A DNA stretch of 64,000 nucleotides from Thermoplasmatota archaeon (lineage in GTDB: Archaea > Thermoplasmatota > E2 > JACPAO01 > JAHFTW01), in NCBI GenBank assembly GCA_038046725.1, contig JBBSVQ010000040.1, positions 9,526-73,525 on the forward strand. The letters are read 5' to 3'. Positions within the stretch are counted from its first letter, which is position 1. Every line of letters starts with the position of its first letter. A program made the position numbers and the translations under genes. This document shows, one piece after another, positions 1,113 to 62,980 of this stretch. The notes under the pieces are model-generated. The model saw only the letters and a list, made by a program, of their open reading frames with translations, searched no databases and was not told the origin of the DNA.

Positions 1113-2171
1113 ATGCCTTCCGACGAGAAGCAGAAGCACATGGTGTTCCCGCGCCACGTCCTGGTGGGCAACGGCGTCCTCGACCGCGTCGGCGAGACCA
1201 TTGCGGACCTCGAGCTCGAGACGAACGGCATCATCGTCGTGGACTCCAACACGCGCAAGCTCGTCGGCGACCGCGTGCAGGCCTCCCTGCGCCAAGCCGG
1301 CCTCGTCGGCCACTTCTACGAGTCCTCCGGCCCCACGATGACCTCCGTGCAAGCCGCCATCAAGGCCGGCCGCAAGGTCGGCGCGCACTGGTACATCGGC
1401 GCCGGCGGCGGCTCCGTCATCGACGTCGCCAAGCTCGCCGCTTTCGAGCACGGCCCGGCCTTCCTCTCGCTGCCCACCTCCGCCAGCCATGACGGCATCT
1501 GCTCGGGTCGCGCCAGCATCAAGGAGACGCGTGGCTCCGTGTCGATGGAGGCCAAGCCCCCGGCGGCCATCGTCGCCGACACGGAAATCATCTCCAAGGC
1601 CCCGTTCCGCATGCTGGCCGCGGGGTCGGCGGACGTCATCAGCAACCTAACGGCCGTCCTCGACTGGAAACTCGCGCACCGCCTCAAGGACGAGGAATAC
1701 TCCTCCTTCGCAGCCGTCCTGGCCAAGACCGCAGCCGACCAGATCCTCGAGAACAAGCAACTCATCCGTCCCGGCATCGAGGAGGCCGCCTGGCTCGTGG
1801 TCAAATCCCTCGTCGTGTCCGGAGTGTCCATGGCCGTCGCGGGCAACTCCCGCCCGGCCTCGGGTGCTGAGCACCTCTTCGGGCACGCCATCGACCGCCT
1901 CGCCCCCGGCCCCATGCACGGCGAGACCGTCGGCGTCGGCACCGTGCTCATGATGCACTTGCACGGCGGCGACTGGCAGATGATCCGCGACGCCCTGCGC
2001 GAGATTGGTGCCCCCACGACGGCGAAGGAGCTCGGCGTGCCGCCGAAGAAGATGATCGAGGCCCTCACGACGTGCCACAGCCTGCGCCCCGAGCGCTACA
2101 CCATCCTGGGCGAGTCGGGGCTGACGAAGGAAGCGGCGCAGAAATTGTGCAAGGCAACTGCCGTGCTCTGA
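1113..2171 (+). CDS. egsA: sn-glycerol-1-phosphate dehydrogenase
   Basis: ORF track 1101..2171. FPRHVLVGNGVL, GAGGGSVIDVAK and SHDGI motifs typical of archaeal G1P dehydrogenase. ATG 1113 preferred because a TTTAAG box lies 24 nt upstream. Confidence 0.9.
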   Translation: MPSDEKQKHMVFPRHVLVGNGVLDRVGETIADLELETNGIIVVDSNTRKLVGDRVQASLRQAGLVGHFYESSGPTMTSVQAAIKAGRKVGAHWYIGAGGGSVIDVAKLAAFEHGPAFLSLPTSASHDGICSGRASIKETRGSVSMEAKPPAAIVADTEIISKAPFRMLAAGSADVISNLTAVLDWKLAHRLKDEEYSSFAAVLAKTAADQILENKQLIRPGIEEAAWLVVKSLVVSGVSMAVAGNSRPASGAEHLFGHAIDRLAPGPMHGETVGVGTVLMMHLHGGDWQMIRDALREIGAPTTAKELGVPPKKMIEALTTCHSLRPERYTILGESGLTKEAAQKLCKATAVL

Positions 2172-2179
2172 CGCCCCAG

Positions 2180-2253
2180 CCACCGATTTGCACGGATTCT
2201 CACCGAACGACCCGTTCGGTGCAACTCGACACGTCAGCAGGTTCAGTGGATTG
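2180..2253. repeat. 9-nt-unit hairpin element, degenerate (CACCGA/CACGGAT units)
   Basis: CCACCGATT-TGCACGGAT-TCTCACCGA, with a perfect inner stem CACCGAACG/CGTTCGGTG and a diverged outer right arm ending TCAGTGGATTG. Confidence 0.5.
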
Positions 2254-2277
2254 CCTGAACGACGGCGTGGATTCAAC

Positions 2278-2475
2278 GGCGCGCGTTCCTCCTCGCACAA
2301 GTCCAACGCCCCTGACGGCGACGTCGGCGTGCTGCTGATGGAACCTCCCTCGAAGCGCGCGCCGAAGGCGCGCGAGGCGGCGCCCCGCGCCGCCTAGCCA
2401 ATCCACCATCGGCTTGTTGCCGTGGCCGTCGTCGTCACAAAGAGGTTGACTTGCGTGGGGCACCGAACGGGCGCC
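2278..2475 (+). mobile_element. MITE-like repeat core, copy A
   Basis: Starts GGCGCGCGTTCC and ends GAACGGGCGCC (imperfect terminal inverted repeat). The interior has GACGTCGGCG, GCGCGCCGAAGGCGCGC and GGCGGCGCCCCGCGCCGCC hairpins shared with the other copies. Confidence 0.65.
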
Positions 2476-2598
2476 GGCTGGGACTCGAAAGGCCAACGAG
2501 CGCTCGATTTCACCCAACCCTCCATTCAGTTTGCATCGAAACAAGGGGTGTTCAGGATTGTTGTCGTCCATCAACAACCTTCATATGGTTGTGCGCTA

Positions 2599-2934
2599 AT
2601 GTCACCTGTGCTATGGAAGGTCATCGAAGTCCAACTCCTGGAAGACCTGCAGGTCACGGCCGAGTTCCTGGTGGACGGCAGGGACGTGCAGGAACTCAAG
2701 GTGGTCCTGCACACGCAATCGGGCGGACCGGTCCAATGGTTGGTCCGGATCGAAACGCACGGCGGGAAACCCCACAAGCACGTCGCGTGGGACGACGAGG
2801 GGGAGCTCCGGCACAAGCAACTCAAGGGATGGCCAAGCGACTACTCCAAAGTGGTCACACGAGCCATCCAGGACCTCAAGATGAACCGAGAGATTTACCA
2901 AGCAAGGTACAAAGCATGGATGGCAAGCAAGTAG
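2599..2934 (+). CDS. Small hypothetical protein, first gene of a two-gene cassette (possible toxin-like partner)
   Basis: Internal ATG of ORF 2422..2934; the upstream part of that ORF is repeat sequence. 111 aa, contains GGKPHKHVAWDDEG. Its 3' end overlaps the next gene by 19 nt. Local GC is lower than the surroundings. Confidence 0.5.
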   Translation: MSPVLWKVIEVQLLEDLQVTAEFLVDGRDVQELKVVLHTQSGGPVQWLVRIETHGGKPHKHVAWDDEGELRHKQLKGWPSDYSKVVTRAIQDLKMNREIYQARYKAWMASK

Positions 2935-3263
2935 CCGACAGGGCACTCGACCTGGCCGAACAGCAAATGCTGGCCCTCCTGGCCAATCCGGCTGGAGCAC
3001 CCGACAGGCTCACCATCATCCCCATTCTGACGATGCTCGGAGGCCCGAACGGATTGACGCCGGCGCGCATCGCGCTGTTCATCGAAATCCGCAGCCACGG
3101 AATCTACGAACAGATTCAGGAGCTGGCGGACGCCATGGGTCGGGACAAGCACGCGGTCAGCAAGGACGTCGACGTCCTGGTGCATCACGGCCTCGTGCAC
3201 AAGCAGAAGAAAGGCCGAACTGTGACCATCGAAGCCGACAAGCGCCCCATCTTCCTCGCATGA
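2916..3263 (+). CDS. Winged-helix DNA-binding protein (possible antitoxin/regulator)
   Basis: In-frame ATG inside ORF 2451..3263. LTPARIALFIEIRSHGIYEQIQELADAMGRDKHAVSKDVDVLVHHGLV reads as helix-turn-helix plus wing, like small archaeal HTH proteins paired with toxin-like genes. Confidence 0.6.
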   Translation: MDGKQVADRALDLAEQQMLALLANPAGAPDRLTIIPILTMLGGPNGLTPARIALFIEIRSHGIYEQIQELADAMGRDKHAVSKDVDVLVHHGLVHKQKKGRTVTIEADKRPIFLA

Positions 3264-3438
3264 AGCGCTGCGGCCGGCGGGCGTGTAGGCGTTCCACCAG
3301 GAGTGGCCGAGAGCCCGCGCCGGGCCGGGTTCTCCCGGGGGCCGAGCGCAGCGAGCGCCCCCGCCGTCGCCCAACGTGCTCGTCCTTCGTTTGAAGGTCG
3401 CCCCACACGTTCTTGACCACCCATCCAGTCCCATCCCT

Positions 3439-4257
3439 GTGAGCGACGAGCGCCCATCCGTCGACCAGTACTTCATGGACATGACGCACCTCGTCAAGGC
3501 GCGCGGCACTTGCCCCCGCCGCCAGGTGGGCGCCGTCATCGTGAAGGACAAGCGCCTGCTCACCACGGGTTACAACGGCGCGCCGCGCAACTTCCCGCAC
3601 CCCATCGACGTCGGCTGCCTGCGTGACGAGCTGCAGGTCCCCAAGGGCATGCTCGCGGACATCTGCCCGTGCCTGCACGCCGAGCAGAACGCCATCCTGC
3701 AAGCCGCCACGACTGGCGTCTCCATCGAGGGCGCCGACCTGTACTGCACCACTCAGCCGTGCACGCAATGCAGCCGCATGCTGGCCAACTGCGGCATCCA
3801 ACGCGTCATCTTCGCGGAAGAGTACCCCGATCCGCTCGCCACCGGCATCCTCACCACGGCCGGCGTCGAGATGTACCATTGGGACCACGCCGCCAACAAG
3901 CTGCACCGCATCAAGGGCAACACCTTCGAGCAGGCGCAGGACCAATTGCGCAAGAAGTGGAAGGCCGGCGAATTCCACGCAGCCCCCGCGCCGGGAGCCG
4001 TCATCGGCAAGCGCCTGCCCGTGGTCCAGGGCGGCGGCGCGCAACCCTCCAACCGTCTGCGATCCGTGCCCCCGTCTGTGCCCGCGCCGCCTCCCCAGCC
4101 GGAGGAGCAATCCGGCGAGGAGGTGCCGGACGACGCATCGGGCCCGTCGGCGCGTGGCGTGCGCAACTTGCGCGACGACCCGAACCGGGCGGAACTCATC
4201 CGCCGCATGGCACAGGAGAAGGCCGAACGGCGCAAGAAGCAGCGCGAAGGCCTCTGA
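3439..4257 (+). CDS. dCMP (deoxycytidylate) deaminase with long C-terminal low-complexity extension
   Basis: ORF track 3376..4257. DQYFMDM...HAEQNA...PCTQC zinc-deaminase motifs. GTG 3439 is preferred because codons 3376-3400 are repeat sequence shared with 30968-30998. The last 130 aa or so are Pro/Ala/Arg/Lys-rich. Confidence 0.85.
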   Translation: MSDERPSVDQYFMDMTHLVKARGTCPRRQVGAVIVKDKRLLTTGYNGAPRNFPHPIDVGCLRDELQVPKGMLADICPCLHAEQNAILQAATTGVSIEGADLYCTTQPCTQCSRMLANCGIQRVIFAEEYPDPLATGILTTAGVEMYHWDHAANKLHRIKGNTFEQAQDQLRKKWKAGEFHAAPAPGAVIGKRLPVVQGGGAQPSNRLRSVPPSVPAPPPQPEEQSGEEVPDDASGPSARGVRNLRDDPNRAELIRRMAQEKAERRKKQREGL

Positions 4258-4273
4258 TCCAATCGACGCCCAG

Positions 4274-4359
4274 CCACGAGCCACGGATTGCACGGATGCG
4301 CACGGACCGTCGTTTCCGCGCCAATCCGTCGTTTCCGCGCCAATCCGTGCAATCCGTGG
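4274..4359. repeat. 9-nt-unit hairpin element, CACGGAT variant, with internal 19-nt tandem duplication
   Basis: CCACGGATT-GCACGGATG-CGCACGGAC ... CCAATCCGT-GCAATCCGTGG. The sequence CCGTCGTTTCCGCGCCAAT occurs twice in tandem (4307-4325, 4326-4344). Confidence 0.7.
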
Positions 4360-4440
4360 CAGGTCGGCGGCGTCGGCGTCGGAAGACGTTGCACCTTCGC
4401 GACCAGGAACCGGCGTGGCCGACGGTGGCCGGGAAGGCGA

Positions 4441-8808: not shown

Positions 8809-8936
8809 GCCATCCGACTTGCCTTCCGGCTCTTGACTGTAACGGGTCCCTGGTTCGGCAGTTGGGAACCGTCGCCGCGTCGCTTTGAGCCGGACCCCCG
8901 ATGCGCCGGCGCCACAATCGTGGCGGAACTCCCAAC

Positions 8937-11641: not shown

Positions 11642-11797
11642 CAATCCGCCGATGACGCCGATGAACGATTCCCACATCGGCGGGTTCGGCGTCATCGCGG
11701 GTTCGTCGCTGCATGGCGAACCCATCCACCGATGACACCGATGCCCACCGATGAACGGTCACCGCATCGGTGCCATCGGTGGGAATCGGTGGATCGG
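11642..11797. repeat. Double hairpin composite (CGCCGATG hairpin + CACCGATG hairpin)
   Basis: Its reverse complement aligns by eye along its whole length with 62799-62960. Confidence 0.8.
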
Positions 11798-12094: not shown

Positions 12095-12200
12095 GGGCGG
12101 TCCACCTCGGGAACCCTCATCAGGAAAGCGCTTCCGCACGACCCGACGAGTCCCGGATTTCGCAGAGCGCCGCAGAACGCAACGCCCGCAAATCTCCAGG

Positions 12201-12403
12201 GGCGCGCGTTCCTGGCCCCGCCGTTCCCACGTCTCCCGACGCCGACGTCGGCGACTTGCTCCACAACCATTTCCCGAAGCGCCGCGCGAAGCGCGGCGAG
12301 GCGGCGCCCCGCGCCCGCCCAGGTTTGCATTCATCGGTTTGAGGTCGCGGTCGGAGTCGTCGTCGGAAGGAGGTTGACTGGCGAGGGTCACCGAACGGGC
12401 GCC
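12201..12403 (+). mobile_element. MITE-like repeat core, copy B
   Basis: Same termini and internal hairpins as copy A, aligned by eye. Confidence 0.65.
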
Positions 12404-12575
12404 GTCGGCTGTTCAGAAAGGACGCCGACTTTGGTCGAGAGCCGACGAACTCGAGGCCGAACGCCGCGAGATGCGGCGCGAGGCGGGCCTGCCCAATCGG
12501 CGAGGCGAGCGTTGGAAACGCGAGCCGAGCGCATGGGGGTTCAGGGGGCCCGCAGGGCCCCCTAGCCTAGGTTTC

Positions 12576-12619
12576 GCACGAAACGCGTGAGGCTTCGAAG
12601 AAGCCGATGCGTTTCGTGC
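12576..12619. repeat. Hairpin GCACGAAACGC/GCGTTTCGTGC with nested GGCTTC/GAAGCC stem (CACGAA-related)
   Basis: Perfect 11-bp stem. Overlaps the stop codon of the 12619..12900 gene, so it may act as a terminator-like structure. Confidence 0.5.
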
Positions 12620-12959: not shown

Positions 12960-13015
12960 CCACGACTTGCACGAAGGCCACGAACCAGGCTTCGTGCGGT
13001 TCGTGCAATTCGTGG
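12960..13015. repeat. 9-nt-unit hairpin element, CACGAA variant
   Basis: CCACGACTT-GCACGAAGG-CCACGAACC aggc TTCGTGCGG-TTCGTGCAA-TTCGTGG. Lies between divergent gene starts. Confidence 0.8.
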
Positions 13016-13074
13016 TTGGTGAAGGATGGCGCCCGTGCGAAAAAGGCCTTCACCGACGCCCCCCTGGCCATGGC

Positions 13075-16581: not shown

Positions 16582-16661
16582 GTCATCGGTGGGCATCGGT
16601 GACATCGGTGGATGGCCTTGCCAGGAGCGGGCCAATCCAGATGACACCGAGGTCACCGATG
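16582..16661. repeat. 9-nt-unit hairpin element, CACCGATG variant (GGATGG/CCAATCC next to loop)
   Basis: GTCATCGGTGG-GCATCGGTG-ACATCGGTGGATGG ... CCAATCCAGATG-ACACCGAGG-TCACCGATG. Confidence 0.8.
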
Positions 16662-16683
16662 CGGTTTCCCTGCGCGCGGAGAA

Positions 16684-24642: not shown

Positions 24643-24697
24643 GCGGCGGCCACCGGCGGGCTCGGCATAACCGTGCCGGGCGAGCTGGCTGCGCGAC

Positions 24698-24884
24698 GGC
24701 GCCCGTTCAAGGCATGCCAGTCAACCATCTCCGACGACTCCGACCACCACTTCGAGCCGATGTTGACGTACCTTGTCGGCGGCAGGCGCCGCCTCGCGCG
24801 CCTTCGGCGCGCGCTTTGGGATGCTTGTGCTGCAAGCCGCCGACGCCGGCGTCGGATACGTTGTCATCAGACCAAACGGGCCCC
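24698..24884 (-). mobile_element. MITE-like repeat core, copy C (one end degenerate)
   Basis: Reverse orientation. Starts GGCGCCCGTTC, central GGCGCCGCCTCGCGCGCCTTCGGCGCGCGCTT. The distal end is diverged. Confidence 0.55.
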
Positions 24885-25662: not shown

Positions 25663-25998
25663 ATGCTGGGGTTCCTTGCGCGCTTCGACCGCATGCTCAT
25701 GCTGACGGCCTGCATCGCTGGCACAGGGGCCTTGCTCGTCATCGCCTTCGGCATCGCGGAGGCCTTCAACGACCCGCCCATGTCCGGCGTCTCGTCCGTC
25801 CAGAGCGTCGAGGCGTACCAGGACCGCGCGCGCTGGTTCCAGGCGATGCAGGACATCGGCCAGGCGGGCATCGCCATCGCCTTGCCGCTCGCCATCCTGA
25901 CCTTCGCCCTCGCCATGCTGCGCCCAAGCGGCTCGGGCGAGGACCGCAGCGCCCCATCGGCTCCGGCCGTTGCGCGCGCTCCCAAGCGTGGCGTCTAG
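25663..25998 (+). CDS. Membrane protein, function unknown
   Basis: Internal ATG of ORF 25615..25998. Two hydrophobic helices. Confidence 0.5.
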   Translation: MLGFLARFDRMLMLTACIAGTGALLVIAFGIAEAFNDPPMSGVSSVQSVEAYQDRARWFQAMQDIGQAGIAIALPLAILTFALAMLRPSGSGEDRSAPSAPAVARAPKRGV

Positions 25999-26033
25999 TC
26001 CCGCTCGCGCCCGTTCTGGGCCGCCGACACGAG

Positions 26034-26210
26034 TTAACCTCTTTCCGACGGTGACGACGCCGACGGCATCAAACTCTTGAAGCCGAGGAGGGACGGCGCG
26101 GGGCGCCGCTGGCGAACCTTCAGGGCGTCCGTCAGCGGGGCGATGCTGAAGAGCGCCGCGGCCATGCCCACCGTGTTCGCGGCGAACGGGACCCAGCGCC
26201 AAAACCTCAT
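26034..26210 (-). CDS. Possible small membrane protein
   Basis: C-terminal 58 aa of ORF 26034..26480, from ATG 26210. One hydrophobic segment, high GC3. Weak call. Confidence 0.3.
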   Translation of the reverse strand: MRFWRWVPFAANTVGMAAALFSIAPLTDALKVRQRRPAPSLLGFKSLMPSASSPSERG

Positions 26211-27554: not shown

Positions 27555-27636
27555 CCTCGGTGCCCTCGGTGGGCATCGGTGGATGGTTCAGACTCTTCAC
27601 TCGCCCATCCACCGATGGCACCGATGCCCACCGATG
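27555..27636. repeat. 9-nt-unit hairpin element, CACCGATG variant
   Basis: CCTCGGTGC-CCTCGGTGG-GCATCGGTGGATGG ... CCATCCACCGATG-GCACCGATG-CCCACCGATG. Confidence 0.8.
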
Positions 27637-27699
27637 TCCGGTCGCGCTGACTGGCTGGCCTCGGACCGACGATGGTTCGTTGGCTCCGACCGGACTCCG

Positions 27700-28690: not shown

Positions 28691-28700
28691 CAGGCCCACG

Positions 28701-28893
28701 GGCGCGCGTTCCTCCTCGCACCCGTTCAACGACTTCCGACGCCGACGCCGGCGACTTGCCCTAGAAACAGCGTTCGAAGCGCCGCGCGAAGCGCGGCGGG
28801 CGGCGCCCGGCGCCGCCAGGGATGGCTAGGACTTGCTGGCCGTTCCCGTCGGCGTCACGAGGAGGTTGACCCGTGGGGCGATGAACGGGCGCG
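28701..28893 (+). mobile_element. MITE-like repeat core, copy D
   Basis: Same termini and internal hairpins. Begins 11 nt after the corA stop. Confidence 0.65.
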
Positions 28894-29055
28894 GTCTGGA
28901 ATCTGCAAACTTGTTTGCGTCCTGCAGGCGACGTGGGTTGGCCGCCGGCTCGCGAAGCGGCCGGCGCCGATCCGGGTTCTCCCGGGGGCCGAGCGAAGCG
29001 AGCGCCCCCGCTAGGCAATCTGCGGAATCCGGGCTTCAATCCGTGAATCGCGCCT

Positions 29056-29816: not shown

Positions 29817-29856
29817 ACCAAGAAATTGGGCTTTTGAGCGACACGCGAGGACTTCT

Positions 29857-29937
29857 TCATCGGTGGGCATCGGTGACATCGGTGGATGGGCCTGGCATGG
29901 GTCTGACCATCCACCGATGACACCGATGTCACCGATG
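29857..29937. repeat. 9-nt-unit hairpin element, CACCGATG variant
   Basis: TCATCGGTGG-GCATCGGTG-ACATCGGTGGATGG ... CCATCCACCGATG-ACACCGATG-TCACCGATG. Confidence 0.85.
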
Positions 29938-29963
29938 TGGCACTTGGTCCCGCCTAGGCCACT

Positions 29964-30929: not shown

Positions 30930-30952
30930 GTGGCTGCCCACAGGAGGCGTCG

Positions 30953-30959: not shown

Positions 30960-31106
30960 GTTGGGTCCGACCTTCAAACGAAGGTCGATCACGTTCGGCT
31001 GGCGCGGAGGGGCTTCGCTGCGGTCCGCCCCTCGATTCCAGGCGGAAGGCCCCTTCGCGCTTCGGCGCGGGGGCCGATTCCGGGGGCCTCCCTGACACGC
31101 TCAGCA

Positions 31107-31283
31107 GCGCCCGTTCCTGGCCCTACAAGTCAACCTCCTTGTGGCGCCGACTCCGACGACGAGGTCAAGCCGCTGAAGGCATGTCTTGGCGGCGCGGGGC
31201 GCCGCCTCGACGCATGATGCCTGGGCAAGTCGCCGCCGTCGGCGTCGGAAGGCGTTGGGTGGTCCCGAGGAGGAACGCGCGCC
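31107..31283 (-). mobile_element. MITE-like repeat core, copy E
   Basis: Reverse orientation. Ends GGAACGCGCGCC. Part of a composite spanning about 30968-31337. Confidence 0.6.
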
Positions 31284-31360
31284 GTCACGTCTTGCGCACG
31301 GAGCCCGGGCATCTGCGGGACTCTGCGAAATCCGTGGCTCGTCGGGGGTTGGGTCGCGCT

Positions 31361-35072: not shown

Positions 35073-35154
35073 CATCGGTGACATCGGTGTCATCGGTGGA
35101 TGGTCTGGCGCGTTGGCGGGCCCATCCACCGATGCGCACCGATACCCACCGATG
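35073..35154. repeat. 9-nt-unit hairpin element, CACCGATG variant
   Basis: CATCGGTG-ACATCGGTG-TCATCGGTGGATGG ... CCATCCACCGATG-CGCACCGAT-ACCCACCGATG. Lies between the ABC-F stop and the moeB-like start. Confidence 0.85.
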
Positions 35155-37622: not shown

Positions 37623-37638
37623 CACCGGCACGAAACAA

Positions 37639-37717
37639 CATCGGCGTCGTCGGCGACATCGGCGGATGGTTGGCCCATTGGGTGACCAATCCGCCGATGG
37701 CGCCGAACGCGCCGATG
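37639..37717. repeat. 9-nt-unit hairpin element, CGCCGATG variant
   Basis: CATCGGCG-TCGTCGGCG-ACATCGGCGGATGG ... CCAATCCGCCGATG-GCGCCGAAC-GCGCCGATG. Confidence 0.8.
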
Positions 37718-37730
37718 TGGGTTCCTGGCG

Positions 37731-39422
37731 CTAGGGTTCCGGCGTGCCGAACTTGCCGGCCAGGCGGGAGCCCTTCGGCCAGCCACCGGACGTCGCCTGC
37801 ACCTCGAGGCCGGGCCGGATGGCGCCCGTCGGGCACGCATCGAAGCAGGCGCCGTCGGCGATGCACAAGTCGCGATCCACGCGGGCCATGTCGGTGACGA
37901 TGGCGGCGTCCGTGGGGCATGCGGCTTGGCAGCCGTTGCACACGATGCAGTCCGCGGCGAGCACCCAGGCCTTCTTCTCCTCCGGGAGGGTCTTGGCGAA
38001 GGCCTTCACTGCGGGAACGTCCTTCGGGTTGCCAGTGAACTTGCCACCGACAGCCTCGGGCGCGACAACCGCCGCGGGGCTCGACGCGGGCGTGGGCGGA
38101 GCCGGCGTGGCCGCGGGGGCCTTCGCCTGCTTGGGCGCCTCGTGCACGACGGGCGATGCCGCCTGCGGCACAGAGCCCACAGAGGACACCGAGTCAGACT
38201 TCTGCGCGCTCTGTGCCTTGGGGAGCGGGGTAGCCGCGGTCCCCGGCGGGGGCACGGCGGCCGGCTTGGTTCCCGACTTCACCGCGCGCTCGGCGGCGGC
38301 CTGACGGTCGGCGTCGAGGGTGTCCTTCGTGGGCACCATCCACTTGGCGGTGGCGAGCTTGCGTTTGTTGGCCTCCGCGATGAGGGCGTCCACGTGGCCC
38401 TTCCAGTCGCCGACGAGGCCGAGATCGGAGTACTGGAAGATGGCGGCGCTCGGGTCGGAGTTGATGGCGATGATGGTGCCCGACTCCTTCATGCCCTCGA
38501 TGTGCTGGATGGCGCCGGAGATGCCGACGGCGATGTACAGCTTGGGACGGACCGAGATGCCGGTCTGGCCGACTTGGCGGCCGCGCTCCATCCAGCCCTT
38601 GTCGGCGACGGGGCGCGAGCAGGCGACTTGGCCTCCCAGGGCCTGGGCGAGCTCCTCGAGCTTGGCGAAGCCTTCCGGGCCGCCGATGCCGACGCCGCCG
38701 GCGACGAGGACGTCGGCCTTCGTGATGTCGGCCTTGACGTCATCGACGACGTAGGAGATGACTTGGGCGGCGTACGTCTTGCCGTCGAGCCACTTCGTGT
38801 CGGCGTTGTGCACCTTGCCCGACCGCTTGGTGTCGGGGTGGAGGGGCTTGAAGATGCCGGGGCGCGCCGTGGCCATCTGGGGGCGGTGGCGGTCGCAGCG
38901 AATGGTGGCGAGCATTTTGCCGCCGAAGGCCGGGCGGCGGGCGAGGAGTTCGCCGTTGACGGCGTCGACGTCGAGTTCCGTGCAGTCGGCCGTCATGCCG
39001 GCGTCAAGGGTCGCGGCCACGCGGGACGAGATGTCGCGGCCGGTGTGCGTGGCGCCGATGAGGACGATGTTGGGCTTGTGTTGCTCGATGAGGGCGTTCA
39101 GGACGTCCGTCGAGGGGCGGGCCAGGGGGGTCTTCAGGACAGGGTGCTGCGCCAGGATGACTTCGTCGGCGCCCGCGTGCAGGCACTGGGCGGCGAGGTC
39201 GGTGACTTGGTGGCCAAGGATGACGGCGGTGACCTTGTGGTGCAGCTTCTCCGCCATGGGGCGCGCGGCGCCGAGCAGTTCGAGGGTGACCGGGCGCAGT
39301 TGGCCGTCGCGGTGCTCCACGATGACCCAGACGCCCTTCCAGTCCGCGAAGGAGTCGCAGGGTTTGCAGGCGCGGAACTGGATGGCGTCGTAGCGGCTCC
39401 CCTTGCGACGGGACCGATCCAC
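37731..39422 (-). CDS. etfA: Electron transfer flavoprotein alpha subunit fused to a C-terminal 2x[4Fe-4S] ferredoxin domain
   Basis: ORF 37731..39512. EtfA core (AVGISGAIQHIEGMKESGTIIAIN), then a 110-aa Ala/Pro-rich linker or so, then CIVCNGCQAACP...CIADGACFDACP. GTG 39422 chosen, start uncertain; upstream codons are hairpin repeat. Confidence 0.85.
   Translation of the reverse strand: MDRSRRKGSRYDAIQFRACKPCDSFADWKGVWVIVEHRDGQLRPVTLELLGAARPMAEKLHHKVTAVILGHQVTDLAAQCLHAGADEVILAQHPVLKTPLARPSTDVLNALIEQHKPNIVLIGATHTGRDISSRVAATLDAGMTADCTELDVDAVNGELLARRPAFGGKMLATIRCDRHRPQMATARPGIFKPLHPDTKRSGKVHNADTKWLDGKTYAAQVISYVVDDVKADITKADVLVAGGVGIGGPEGFAKLEELAQALGGQVACSRPVADKGWMERGRQVGQTGISVRPKLYIAVGISGAIQHIEGMKESGTIIAINSDPSAAIFQYSDLGLVGDWKGHVDALIAEANKRKLATAKWMVPTKDTLDADRQAAAERAVKSGTKPAAVPPPGTAATPLPKAQSAQKSDSVSSVGSVPQAASPVVHEAPKQAKAPAATPAPPTPASSPAAVVAPEAVGGKFTGNPKDVPAVKAFAKTLPEEKKAWVLAADCIVCNGCQAACPTDAAIVTDMARVDRDLCIADGACFDACPTGAIRPGLEVQATSGGWPKGSRLAGKFGTPEP
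38167..38217. repeat. 9-nt-unit hairpin element, GCAGAG/CACAGAG variant, inside the etfA linker coding region
   Basis: GGCACAGAG-CCCACAGAG-GACACCGAG tcag ACTTCTGCG-CGCTCTGTGCC. Translated on the minus strand as KAQSAQKSDSVSSVGSVPQ. Confidence 0.7.
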
Positions 39423-39490
39423 CGATGACACCGATGTCACCGATGCGGTTGCCGTGCCGGCCATCGGTGTCATCGGTGACATCGGTGGAT
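39416..39490. repeat. 9-nt-unit hairpin element, CACCGATG variant (ATCC ends distal)
   Basis: ATCCACCGATG-ACACCGATG-TCACCGATG cggttgccgtgccggc CATCGGTG-TCATCGGTG-ACATCGGTGGAT. Lies between etfB and etfA. Confidence 0.9.
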
Positions 39491-39508
39491 TCGTTTCGTG
39501 GGCGGGAG

Positions 39509-42504: not shown

Positions 42505-42608
42505 GTGCGCCCTTCCTTGGCGGCGCGACAGAGGGGCGGTTTATGAGGAAAGCGGGGCGGCCTAGCCCACATCCAGGACGCGGTCAAGCAACATGCTCAT
42601 GGTCTGCC

Positions 42609-42796
42609 CGCGCGCGCTCCTGGCCCCAACCGTGCAACAGCTTCCGACGCCGACGGCGGCGGTTTGCACCACCAAGACTCGAAGCAGCGCGCGAAGCGCG
42701 CCGAGGCGGCGCCCCGCGCCGCGGCCAATCTCTGGCTTGTGAGCGTCGTCGGAGTCGTCACAAGGAGGTTGAATTCTGTGGCAATGAACGGGCGCC
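42609..42796 (+). mobile_element. MITE-like repeat core, copy F
   Basis: Left end GCGCGCGCTCC (diverged), right end GAACGGGCGCC, central hairpins conserved. Confidence 0.6.
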
Positions 42797-42877
42797 GGCA
42801 TGACGTTTGGGGGGATTGGCGAAAGGCGCGGCAAGACGGCGGTTCTTGCCGATGCCGGCCCCTTTAGGCGTTCGTCG

Positions 42878-46733: not shown

Positions 46734-46785
46734 AGGTTGGCCAGGTGCCCTCTGATTTCAAGGGTTCGATGGGTGGCGGCACGAC

Positions 46786-46985
46786 GGCGCGCGTTCCAAC
46801 TTGCGACCGAATGGCGCTTTCTCCGCCGACGGTGGCGGCTTGCCCAGGGATGCGTTGGCGAAGCGGCGCGCGTAGCGCGCCGAGGCGACGCCCCGCGCCG
46901 CCAAGGGACGTCATCAGAGGCTTGACGGCGGCGTCGGCGTCGCCGTCAGAAGGAGGTTGACTGGCGTGGCGCCCGAACGGGCGCG
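46786..46985 (+). mobile_element. MITE-like repeat core, copy G
   Basis: GGCGCGCGTTCC ... GAACGGGCGCG. Lies between the ABCE1 start and the MBL hydrolase. Confidence 0.65.
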
Positions 46986-46990
46986 GTCGA

Positions 46991-49224: not shown

Positions 49225-49727
49225 TGGAGCCCACCGAACTGCTGCCCTACTTCCAGCTCGTGGGACAGATTGCCCTCGTCGTCGGCGCCGGCGTGGCCGT
49301 CTACCAGCTGATGCAGTTGCGCCAGTCGCGCCATTCGGAGGCGGCGCTGCAAGTCATTACGAGTCTGCAGACGCAGGAGTTCCGCGACGCCTTCAACCTC
49401 GTCAATGAATTGCCGCTCGGGGCGACGGCGGACCAGGTGCGCGCCGACCCGCGCGTCGAGACTGCGGCGGGCACCATCATGATGACGTTCGAGACGCTCG
49501 GTGTTCTCGTGCATTCGCGCATCGTTCCCATTGAACTCGTGGACCAGGTCATCGGCGGGTTCCTGCGCGAGTCCTGGCGCCGCCTGGAGCCGTACACGAT
49601 GTGGAAGCGCAAGGCCATCGGCTCCGCGCGTTGGGGCGAGTGGTACCAGTGGCTCTTCGAGCACCTGGCCGTGAACCCGAGGCGCCAGCAAGGTGCGTAC
49701 GAGGTCTTCCGCGAGTGGAAGGCCTGA
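49224..49727 (+). CDS. Hypothetical protein with N-terminal TM helix (DUF4760-like?)
   Basis: ORF track 49221..49727. ATG 49224 overlaps the lipA stop (TGATG). Family assignment is from memory only. Confidence 0.5.
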   Translation: MEPTELLPYFQLVGQIALVVGAGVAVYQLMQLRQSRHSEAALQVITSLQTQEFRDAFNLVNELPLGATADQVRADPRVETAAGTIMMTFETLGVLVHSRIVPIELVDQVIGGFLRESWRRLEPYTMWKRKAIGSARWGEWYQWLFEHLAVNPRRQQGAYEVFREWKA

Positions 49728-49729
49728 CC

Positions 49730-49924
49730 GCGCCCGTTCGGTGCCCACGCGCAACCAACGTCTTGTGACGCCGACCCCGACGCCGAGGTCAAGCCAGTGA
49801 TTTCTTGGCGGCGCGGGGCGCCGCCTCGCGCGCCTTCGGCGCGCGCTTCGGCACCTGTTGCGTGTGCAAGTCCCCGTCGTCGGCGTCGGAAGGCGTTGGA
49901 CTCGTGCGAGGAGGAATGCGCGCC
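49730..49924 (-). mobile_element. MITE-like repeat core, copy H
   Basis: Reverse orientation. Starts 3 nt after the stop of 49224..49727. Its reverse complement aligns almost end to end with copy A. Confidence 0.65.
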
Positions 49925-50012
49925 GTCATGGCGCGTTGCGGTTGGTGGGGCGCATGAGTCTTGACTTGCACCGGTCCAAGCCGACGCGCTGGACCGTGGG
50001 GGCGGGTCGCCC

Positions 50013-53476: not shown

Positions 53477-53546
53477 GAACCACGAAACCCACGAAGCGCA
53501 CGAACGAGAGCGCAGCGCTTCGTGCGTTTCGTGCAATTCGTGGTTC
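53477..53546. repeat. 9-nt-unit hairpin element, CACGAA variant
   Basis: GAACCACGAAA-CCCACGAAG-CGCACGAAC ... CTTCGTGCG-TTTCGTGCA-ATTCGTGGTTC. Lies between E1beta and E2. Confidence 0.85.
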
Positions 53547-60580: not shown

Positions 60581-60646
60581 GAACCACGAATTGCACGAAG
60601 GCCACGAACCGCGACGGTTTCGTGCATTTCGTGCCATTCGTGGTTC
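60581..60646. repeat. 9-nt-unit hairpin element, CACGAA variant
   Basis: GAACCACGAAT-TGCACGAAG-GCCACGAAC cgcgacgg TTTCGTGCA-TTTCGTGCC-ATTCGTGGTTC. Lies between argJ and argB. Confidence 0.9.
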
Positions 60647-61503: not shown

Positions 61504-61562
61504 GCCGCGAATTTCGCGAAGGACCGCGAAGCCCTGTTCGCGCTTTTCGCGCAATTCGCGGC
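61504..61562. repeat. 9-nt-unit hairpin element, CGCGAA variant
   Basis: GCCGCGAAT-TTCGCGAAG-GACCGCGAAG ccctg TTCGCGCTT-TTCGCGCAA-TTCGCGGC. Lies between argB and argD. Confidence 0.85.
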
Positions 61563-61583
61563 TTCGTCGTCGGGGGTCGCCGC

Positions 61584-62798: not shown

Positions 62799-62960
62799 CA
62801 ATCCACCGATGCCCACCGATGGCACCGATGCGGTTCCCCATCGGTGGAAATCGGTGTCATCCGTGGATGGGTCCGTCGTGCCGCGACAATCCGCCGATGA
62901 CGCCGAACCCGCCGATGCAGGAATCGTTCATCGGCGATATCGGCGTCATCGGCGGATTGG
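62799..62960. repeat. Double hairpin composite (CACCGATG hairpin + CGCCGATG hairpin)
   Basis: CAATCCACCGATG-CCCACCGATG-GCACCGATG ... GGATGG, then CAATCCGCCGATG-ACGCCGAAC-CCGCCGATG ... CATCGGCGGATTGG. It is the inverted counterpart of 11642-11797. Confidence 0.85.
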
Positions 62961-62980
62961 GTCGGCTGGTCGCGACGCGC

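Follow-up and report, generated by a model that had tools for sequence, protein, structure and literature searches.

In this study, we analysed a cassette of two small overlapping genes in a 64,000-nucleotide stretch of DNA (hereafter the window; contig JBBSVQ010000040.1) from a metagenome-assembled genome (MAG) of Candidatus Thermoplasmatota with a GC content of 67.8%. The cassette lies within a 1.27-kb gap that separates two housekeeping genes. The upstream neighbour is egsA, encoding glycerol-1-phosphate dehydrogenase (1101-2171; NF002022, E=1e-138), and the downstream neighbour is the dCMP deaminase gene dcd (about 3441-4257). Short repeats lie on both sides of the cassette. A preliminary description had read positions 2180-3400 as one composite repeat, in which a half-arm, a core resembling a miniature inverted-repeat transposable element (MITE), a G5/C5 hairpin and a terminal palindrome bracket a two-gene cassette. 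Both encoded proteins are identical to AABY18_09365 and AABY18_09370 and to the products of genes on contig CAYIPJ010000015 of GCA_964365265.1.

We examined the base composition of the gap. The GC content drops to 45-55% from about position 2490 and rises above 80% at 3264, directly after the stop codon of the second gene. The lower-GC DNA between core and hairpin that had been described before is real, with a length of about 780 bp here instead of about 840 bp. It opens with a unique, AT-richer spacer (2482-2559, plus strand; 45-53% GC), for which no homologue was found in the window or in relatives. The cassette itself has a GC content of 58-61% and a GC content at third codon positions (GC3) of 0.78, compared with 68% and 0.87-0.95 in host genes, and its composition is foreign to the genome. 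A second spacer (3264-3312, plus strand; about 82% GC, host-like composition) begins exactly at the stop codon of the second gene.

The first gene (2599-2934, plus strand) encodes a putative toxin-like effector of 111 aa from an ATG at 2599, or of 108 aa from a GTG at 2608. The GTG is the start conserved across relatives, and the ATG occurs only in the window genome and in one relative, L005. The protein matched PF24839 (DUF7718) with 37.9 bits (cut-off, 25) over residues 13-108, as did all 11 relatives. The family alignment contains the invariant motif R-x-E-T-H-G-G...H-x-H, which in its fuller form reads L-V-R-[IY]-E-T-H-G-G-x-[PA]-H-[KR]-H-x-x-W-D-D...R-H. An AlphaFold2 (AF2) model (predicted local distance difference test (pLDDT), 88; predicted template modelling score (pTM), 0.81) comprises five or six antiparallel strands and, C-terminal to them, two helices. 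Neither model nor sequence gave a match in a PDB sequence search or in Foldseek searches of PDB and BFVD, and scans with NCBIfam, PADLOC and PHROGs returned nothing for this protein. The family is tiny: a profile query gave 24 clusters among 5.8 billion proteins, and an exhaustive phmmer search gave 9 matches among 1.84 billion representatives. No match for either window protein was obtained by tblastn against plasmids.

The second gene (2916-3263, plus strand) overlaps the first by 19 nt and encodes a 115-aa putative antitoxin and autorepressor of the HVO_A0114 winged helix-turn-helix (wHTH) family. It matched PF25212 with 42.5 bits (cut-off, 27.6), and hhalign against HVO_A0114 of Haloferax volcanii gave a probability of 85.5% (E=5.7e-6). 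It also matched ArsR/SmtB proteins by sequence. The AF2 model (pLDDT 85) has a long N-terminal helix and a C-terminal winged helix of ArsR/MarR type, and Foldseek aligned it with ArsR/MarR wHTH structures at a root-mean-square deviation of 1.4-2.1 Å over about 60 residues. NCBIfam, PADLOC and PHROGs gave generic wHTH matches only. Structure and profile searches of both proteins, which had been proposed for this locus, thus yielded DUF7718, with no structural match, and an HVO_A0114-type wHTH protein. The two open reading frames (ORFs), their overlap and the winged helix of the second product are as first described, and the statement that neither protein is transposase-like is supported by the Pfam, NCBIfam, PADLOC and PHROGs scans.

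We then compared the genomic contexts of the pair. The contigs of nine relatives were inspected, and the contexts are named window, L005, L006, L007/8, L015, L016, L017/18, L028 and L029. In ten of ten contexts, the gene directly after DUF7718 was an HVO_A0114 gene, with gene order unchanged and an overlap of 19-28 nt. The neighbouring genes were unrelated between contexts. In the closest relative (L028; 83% nucleotide identity), a tyrosine integrase gene stands between tRNA-Met and the pair, and in L006 the pair lies within an integrase island of small ORFs. In L029, the pair, a PIN-domain gene, HicB/HicA and a PemK toxin gene form a row whose flanking genes encode a PMT-type glycosyltransferase and a protein of 1045 aa; these flanks are shared by L005, where toxin-antitoxin (TA) genes are fewer. 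Nucleotide homology of the cassette starts about 40 nt upstream of the start codon (about window position 2557) and stops at the stop codon of the second gene. The distribution is patchy and linked to mobile elements, with 24 clusters, integrase and TA islands, and absence of the pair at egsA in four relatives. These results indicate that the pair is a conserved, mobile module. They support the earlier suggestion of a selfish two-gene module in which a small protein and a wHTH protein resemble toxin and antitoxin.

The TA island shared by two of these genomes is itself variable. It spans 3635-6746 in L029 and 3615-5058 in L005, and contains a PIN gene with its upstream ORF, HicB/HicA, the DUF7718 pair, and PemK with its upstream ORF. 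Its flanks, the protein of about 1050 aa and the PMT-type glycosyltransferase, are common to both genomes, which are divergent.

The region upstream of the pair was compared among loci. A putative promoter/operator (2560-2607, plus strand) has a layout that is conserved among nine loci. GTTGY-N9-RCAACC comes first, a TATA-like box and GGTTGY follow, and a fourth RCAAC half-site immediately precedes the conserved GTG. In the window, the putative operator half-sites are GTTGT (2560-2564)-N9-ACAAC (2574-2578), GGTTGT (2587-2592) and a degenerate fourth, GTCACC (2601-2606). The TATA-like box is TTCATAT (2580-2586) here, and TTTAAGA and TTTAATAT occur as variants among the loci. In three loci, GTTGT/ACAAC is changed to GTTGC/GCAAC, so that the symmetry is kept by T/C and A/G covariation of the half-sites. 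The centre of the box lies about 25 nt upstream of this GTG (2608 in the window), and this position fits a leaderless or near-leaderless archaeal transcript. The cassette therefore has what is found in type II TA modules in general, namely two small, co-directional, coupled genes with palindromic elements, here putative operators, at a promoter of their own.

Previously, Durairaj et al. (2023) defined the TumE-TumA system (DUF6516/PF20126) and validated it experimentally (PMC10584680). Six gammaproteobacterial toxins arrested the growth of E. coli and were neutralised by their partners, and one toxin inhibited translation (PMC10584680). A DUF6516/TumE-type pairing had been suggested for the window, and TumE sequences for comparison were taken from haloarchaeal plasmids. 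On pHV4 of H. volcanii, the gene for a DUF6516 protein (PF20126, E=5e-18) overlaps that for the HVO_A0114 regulator (PF25212, E=3e-34) in the gene order of the window (HVO_RS02390/HVO_RS02385). The same immediate succession of TumE and HVO_A0114 regulator was found in 9/9 haloarchaeal plasmid loci (L019-L027), pHV4 and eight more. As HVO_A0114 follows TumE in all of these loci, DUF7718 sits in the TumE slot, and the wHTH partner, judged by family membership, links the cassette to archaeal TumE systems. In these haloarchaeal loci the toxin gene comes first, whereas the opposite order has been reported to predominate in bacterial TumE-TumA.

Both kinds of pair consist of a protein of about 100-110 aa, beta-rich with C-terminal helices, followed by an overlapping HVO_A0114-family wHTH gene, and both occur on mobile DNA. 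The bicistronic arrangement with a small DNA-binding partner, typical of TumE-like pairs, was seen in ten of ten DUF7718 contexts. A conserved motif, h-h-R-[YI]-[DE]-[NT]...H...H-x-H, lies at an equal relative position in both small proteins. However, the small protein here is DUF7718 and not PF20126, and no cross-match between the profiles was obtained: the TumE hidden Markov model (HMM) did not match any of 11 DUF7718 members at E<=10, and 8 haloarchaeal TumE proteins had no DUF7718 match. Alignment of DUF7718 with TumE by hhalign covered only 21 columns and was not significant (E=0.045, probability 1%; motifs LVRYETHGG.aHKH and ilRYDNa.h..g.HhrH). TumE is described as an alpha+beta fold in which two helices pack against an antiparallel sheet of seven strands, and a PDB match for TumE was not found (PMC10584680). 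The DUF7718 model is compatible with this fold, as compared by description only. The wHTH protein is 115 aa long, whereas haloarchaeal HVO_A0114 proteins have 134-175 aa and an acidic N-terminal extension that is missing here. In the bacterial TumE pairs that were examined by experiment, the gene order is opposite to that of the cassette and the antitoxins are unrelated. Thus, the suggested pairing holds for the wHTH partner and not for the small protein, and we treat the cassette as probably working like TumE-TumA, as a partner-swapped or very divergent branch rather than a demonstrated member.

The cassette was also compared with other known systems. As in the toxin-first type II TA systems HigBA, MqsRA and HicAB, the gene in the toxin position is upstream of an HTH gene, the genes overlap or are coupled, and palindromic operators are predicted at the promoter. 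It differs from them in that the first gene has no similarity in sequence or structure to those toxins and in that the promoter is of archaeal TATA type. A report on Photorhabdus, a bacterium, showed that chromosomal TA modules are autonomous selfish elements, acquired via mobile genetic elements and left in spots of high turnover (Belot et al., 2026; PMC13617665). The DUF7718 pair resembles these modules in being patchy and associated with integrases, in clustering with other TA pairs, and in having no lasting linkage to neighbours, whereas its host is a Thermoplasmatota archaeon and its TA function is putative.

Next, the repeats were examined with a sensitive BLAST search of 2150-3450 against the window, reciprocal searches, and local alignments with shuffle controls. 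The core (2276-2481, plus strand) is palindromic and MITE-like, with terminal inverted repeats GGCGCGCGTTCC...GAACGGGCGCC and two apical GC hairpins, as determined from BLAST, alignments and a consensus fold-back. It had been placed at 2278-2475 and held to be homologous to the copies at 28.7 and 31 kb, and BLAST confirmed this with slightly wider bounds (70-78% identity to at least seven other window copies; E, 1e-15 to 1e-36). The family measures about 205 bp and has seven full and three partial copies in 64 kb, mutually 67-78% identical, which is about one copy per 6-9 kb. The other full copies are at 12196-12407, 28696-28899, 42604-42799 and 46776-46989, and on the minus strand at 31107-31287 and 49723-49941; partial copies are at 24694-24856, 25994-26127 and 4352-4418. 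All are strictly intergenic, and the spacers in which they lie may be convergent, divergent or tandem. The core has the long imperfect arms of a fold-back element and is complete on one side of the genes. One apical hairpin showed compensatory double changes in two or three copies of the alignments.

The core is thus short, non-coding and multi-copy, with terminal inverted repeats, as are MITEs. Consistent target-site duplications were not seen in alignments of the copies, and no transposase partner was identified in the 64-kb window, no genome-wide transposase search having been made. With at least ten copies in 64 kb, strict intergenic location and fold-back structure, the core behaves like an old MITE or a repeat of the repetitive extragenic palindromic (REP) type. 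From MITEs and repeats of the REP or bacterial interspersed mosaic element (BIME) type it differs in that neither target-site duplication nor cognate transposase was identified, and its copies are old (70-78% identical). MITEs are by definition gene-free. Here, in contrast, the genes lie beside the core and not inside it. The core side of the gap appears to go with egsA, because a related MAG (L011; 88% EgsA identity) carries a core copy at 4039-4250, about 80 nt after egsA. Orthology of the two copies was considered and not established, since their flanks are unalignable and the L011 core is no nearer to the core at 2276 than to other copies.

On the dcd side, the G5/C5 hairpin module (3313-3365, plus strand) is 92% identical to 28960-29011 (3313-3364; 48/52 nt, E=5e-16). 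Its 3' part continues into a match with the reverse complement of 31031-30968, in which 3338-3400, that is, the 3' half of the hairpin and the palindrome, is 81% identical over 64 nt (E=1e-10). The local-alignment scores of the two matches were 84 and 70, compared with a shuffle maximum of 28. In local alignment, the hairpins at 28.9 and 31 kb were barely alike, and the segment 3313-3400 is therefore a mosaic itself. The hairpin modules of the window folded no better than GC-matched shuffles (z = -1.5, +0.3 and -1.8). The palindrome module AACGTGCTCGTCCTTCGTTTGAAGGTCG (3372-3400, plus strand) ends 40 nt before the start codon of dcd, and is also present in L005, L030 and L031. Its sequence ACCTTCGTTTGAAGGT occurs three times with <=3 mismatches, compared with 0.24 expected, and has arms of 7-8 bp around a centre of 4-6 nt. 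Another hairpin of G5/C5 type, GGGGGCCCGCAGGGCCCCC at 12540-12580, about 140 nt past the core at 12196, is unrelated in sequence to the 3313 module, and therefore GC hairpins of this style recur independently.

The half-arm (2180-2209, plus strand) was read from the sequence as three 9-nt units, CCACCGATTT GCACGGATT CTCACCGAA, and starts 9 nt past the stop codon of egsA. Its similarity to the flank of the 31-kb core is at the level of a motif (14/16 nt) and was matched by 14/500 shuffles. In contrast, a clear block of 35 nt is common to the flanks of the cores at 31 kb and 12 kb. Two reference copies were used in these comparisons: 28696-29011 (plus strand), in which the core 28696-28899 is followed by the hairpin 28960-29011, and the inverted composite 30968-31337 (minus strand), which has 9-nt units, the core 31287-31107, hairpins at about 31090-31005 and the palindrome 30996-30968. 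Of the four end modules proposed for 2180-3400, core, hairpin and palindrome proved homologous to the other copies, and the half-arm was marginal.

We consider it probable that 2560-3263 is a self-contained, horizontally acquired type II TA-like module and that the repeats are its neighbours and not its vehicle. A short or leaderless bicistronic transcript would start about 25 nt past the TATA-like box, near the GTG at 2608. DUF7718 would be the effector, its invariant Arg/Glu/His cluster probably belonging to a translation- or RNA-targeting toxin by analogy with TumE. The second protein would form a winged-helix dimer of HVO_A0114 type, in which the N-terminal helical region may neutralise the effector, and the winged helix may repress the operon through the inverted repeats (GTTGY/RCAAC) that lie to either side of the TATA box. 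The module would travel on integrase-bearing elements and accumulate in TA islands. In the window genome, it most likely survives in isolation, left behind by an element that decayed or by a recombination event. The locus is a breakpoint of synteny (2171-3441): egsA is followed by the cassette and dcd in the window, and by a UPF0179-like gene in L010-L013. Neither the pair nor dcd is near egsA in these four relatives (EgsA identity 51-88%), and the UPF0179-like gene is absent from the entire 64-kb window. The spacer would already have held unrelated repeats, the 9-nt array and the core by the 3' end of egsA and the hairpin and palindrome by the 5' end of dcd. The simplest reading is that two pre-existing sets of intergenic elements were brought together around an acquired cassette.

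Several observations weigh against this reading. The low-GC insert lies exactly between core and hairpin, and core, hairpin and palindrome follow one another in the order and orientation seen in the 31-kb composite, an agreement that could exceed coincidence. No homologue of the L006 and L028 tyrosine integrases, and thus no integrase remnant, was found in the window, and the delivery route is deduced from relatives. Homology between DUF7718 and TumE is not demonstrated by the profile comparisons, and Foldseek found no solved structure in PDB that resembles the DUF7718 model. A literature search found no paper that names DUF7718 or HVO_A0114, and the toxicity, neutralisation and DNA binding of the family are putative.

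The first two of these points are also what favours the capture of the pair by a composite repeat, one of two options in the preliminary description. The 9-nt array, core, hairpin and palindrome would then form one non-autonomous composite that took up the pair between core and hairpin, all movable together, and this is unlikely. The shared order and orientation (31337-30968) extends to core and hairpin at 28696-29011, all three hairpin copies of the window are on the same side of a core, and the lower-GC DNA begins no more than about 10 nt from the end of the core and leaves a gap of about 50 nt to the hairpin. However, the modules do not behave as one unit. Five of the seven full cores have neither hairpin nor palindrome, and the palindrome, with or without hairpin, occurs coreless in L005, L030 and L031. 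The core at 2276 is no closer to those at 28696 (70%) and 31287 (72%) than to any other copy, and its closest match (78%), at 49941, is hairpinless. In the composites at 2276 and 28696, the cores are 70% and the adjoining hairpins 92% identical, which is incongruent, and the hairpins at 28.9 and 31 kb differ as described above. The similarity of the half-arm is marginal, no direct or inverted repeats of at least 8 nt were found across both insert junctions, so that there is no target-site duplication, and the spacer 2482-2557 is not similar to its counterparts in the composites at 28.7 and 31 kb. No further cargo-bearing copy was seen among the loci examined, and in the nine other cassette loci core, hairpin and palindrome were never beside the pair. 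The synteny breakpoint at this locus also speaks against a composite. Taken together, the modules are separable, with differing histories, and the proposed capture is unproven; we judge the arguments against it to be stronger than those for it.

Short structured repeats adjoin a small gene cassette here, as in MITE-bracketed mobilisation units and in integron cassettes. In MITE-bracketed units, one element is present on both sides of the cargo. Here the modules differ between the sides, and the 70% and 92% identities, the missing duplication and the lack of another cargo-bearing copy in the loci examined do not agree with such a unit. An integron cassette is a promoterless ORF with attC beside an integron integrase. 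The pair has its own conserved promoter, no attC-type architecture and no integron integrase, and no tyrosine integrase homologue was found in the window. The conditions named beforehand as speaking against a link between pair and repeats were also looked at; the homology of the flanks holds, and the pair was not found at the same locus in relatives.

It is more doubtful still that the hairpin and palindrome form an att-like site for site-specific recombination, at which an element with a tyrosine recombinase left or delivered the cassette. The palindrome, with its short arms around a small centre, has the geometry for this, and the closest relatives of the cassette are beside tyrosine integrases, L028 adjoining tRNA-Met. 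The hairpin-plus-palindrome unit also lies beside tRNA genes. In L030 (5570-5703, minus strand), it is directly 3' of tRNA-Arg(ccg), and in L031 (366-596, minus strand), two and a half tandem units of 84 nt are 3' of tRNA-Thr(ggt), each opening with the last 8 nt of the tRNA, CCAGCGGC. These units look like an att-like or tRNA-linked repeat. However, the tRNA-proximal junction in L028 has neither hairpin nor palindrome, the window has neither an integrase homologue nor a tRNA, and viral contigs contained no palindrome (and no relative of DUF7718 or HVO_A0114).

The position of the palindrome suits a promoter-proximal operator at least equally. The palindrome CGNCCTTCGTTYGAAGGTCG ends at a near-constant 37-40 nt before the starts of three unrelated genes: dcd (3372-3400), an Mrp/ApbC-like ATPase gene (30968-30996) and, in L005, a gene for an unknown 301-aa protein (8895-8923; 39 nt). 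In the second case, the composite 30968-31337 ends 37 nt before the gene start at 30930. This constant spacing suggests a promoter-proximal role on the dcd side, and the palindrome may be a shared operator. At the sites before gene starts, T-rich or TATA-like sequence is found just downstream of the palindrome.

A bolder proposal combines both subjects. The hairpin-palindrome unit, with or without the core, might be a recombination substrate at which tyrosine recombinases acting in trans insert small self-regulated cassettes between genes. The unit would then belong to an archaeal system of cassette insertion or att sites, and DUF7718 might be a new clade of toxins in the TumE superfamily. We regard this as speculative and improbable.

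It is quite improbable that the pair is not a TA module but a regulatory unit, in which a wHTH repressor works with a small ligand- or signal-binding co-factor and both are often transferred. The toxicity of the first gene is putative only, DUF7718 has no detectable similarity to any characterised toxin, and the gene order, with the putative antitoxin second, is the less common one. However, the pair co-locates with canonical TA pairs and integrases, and its pairing is strict and its distribution patchy (24 clusters). In haloarchaea, the same partner family and layout go with the validated TumE family, and the promoter architecture is self-contained and autoregulatory in style. The last alternative, the other option in the preliminary description, is that the gene-bearing copy is the autonomous parent of the short MITE-like copies. 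It is very improbable and effectively refuted: this is the only copy with coding capacity between repeat modules, but neither of its products is transposase- or recombinase-like, the core stands complete as a fold-back to one side of the genes and is not split into two termini around them, homologous cassettes at nine other loci are repeat-free, and the cassette is foreign in GC content while the repeats match the genome.

If the DUF7718 protein is toxic and neutralised by its partner, DUF7718 would be a new toxin family that extends the TumE-TumA superfamily, either as a highly divergent branch of TumE or by a partner swap with the HVO_A0114 antitoxin family. To our knowledge, almost nothing is known of TA biology in uncultured GC-rich Thermoplasmatota. 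The conserved operator-TATA-operator layout offers a testable example of archaeal TA autoregulation. The occurrence of hairpin and palindrome beside tRNA genes in relatives points to possible recombination or promoter elements in this lineage. The locus also calls for caution in annotation, as an ordinary insertion can resemble a cargo-bearing repeat element where intergenic repeats form a dense mosaic.

Several further features of the window were recorded. The composites 2180-3400 (plus strand) and 30968-31337 (minus strand) are mutually inverted, with their palindromes facing inward, and are 27.5 kb apart; no link to the synteny break was established. A simple inversion between them was considered as the cause of the break and rejected, since it would put the Mrp-like gene, not the UPF0179-like gene, beside egsA. 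The window and the public MAG contig differ by 155 bp within the core. At this point (1071-1225 of L003/L001, corresponding to about 2372 of the window), the public contig has a run of N and low-complexity G/C junk in the core repeat, and the difference was set aside as a scaffolding artefact at a repeat, not biology. Rfam gave no family at its gathering score over the whole window, and none at E<=1 over 2100-3500. A second abundant class of intergenic repeats consists of triplets of 9-nt units of the types CATCGGTGN, ATCCGTG and TTCGTGC. These are at 11647-11753, 16583-16673, 27588-27643, 29856-29949, 35073-35142, 37626-37730, 39414-39506 and 62809-62964, and further at 12989-13017, 53517-53545, 60617-60645 and 61535-61563. 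The triplets often form inverted pairs, and several are located immediately past stop codons.

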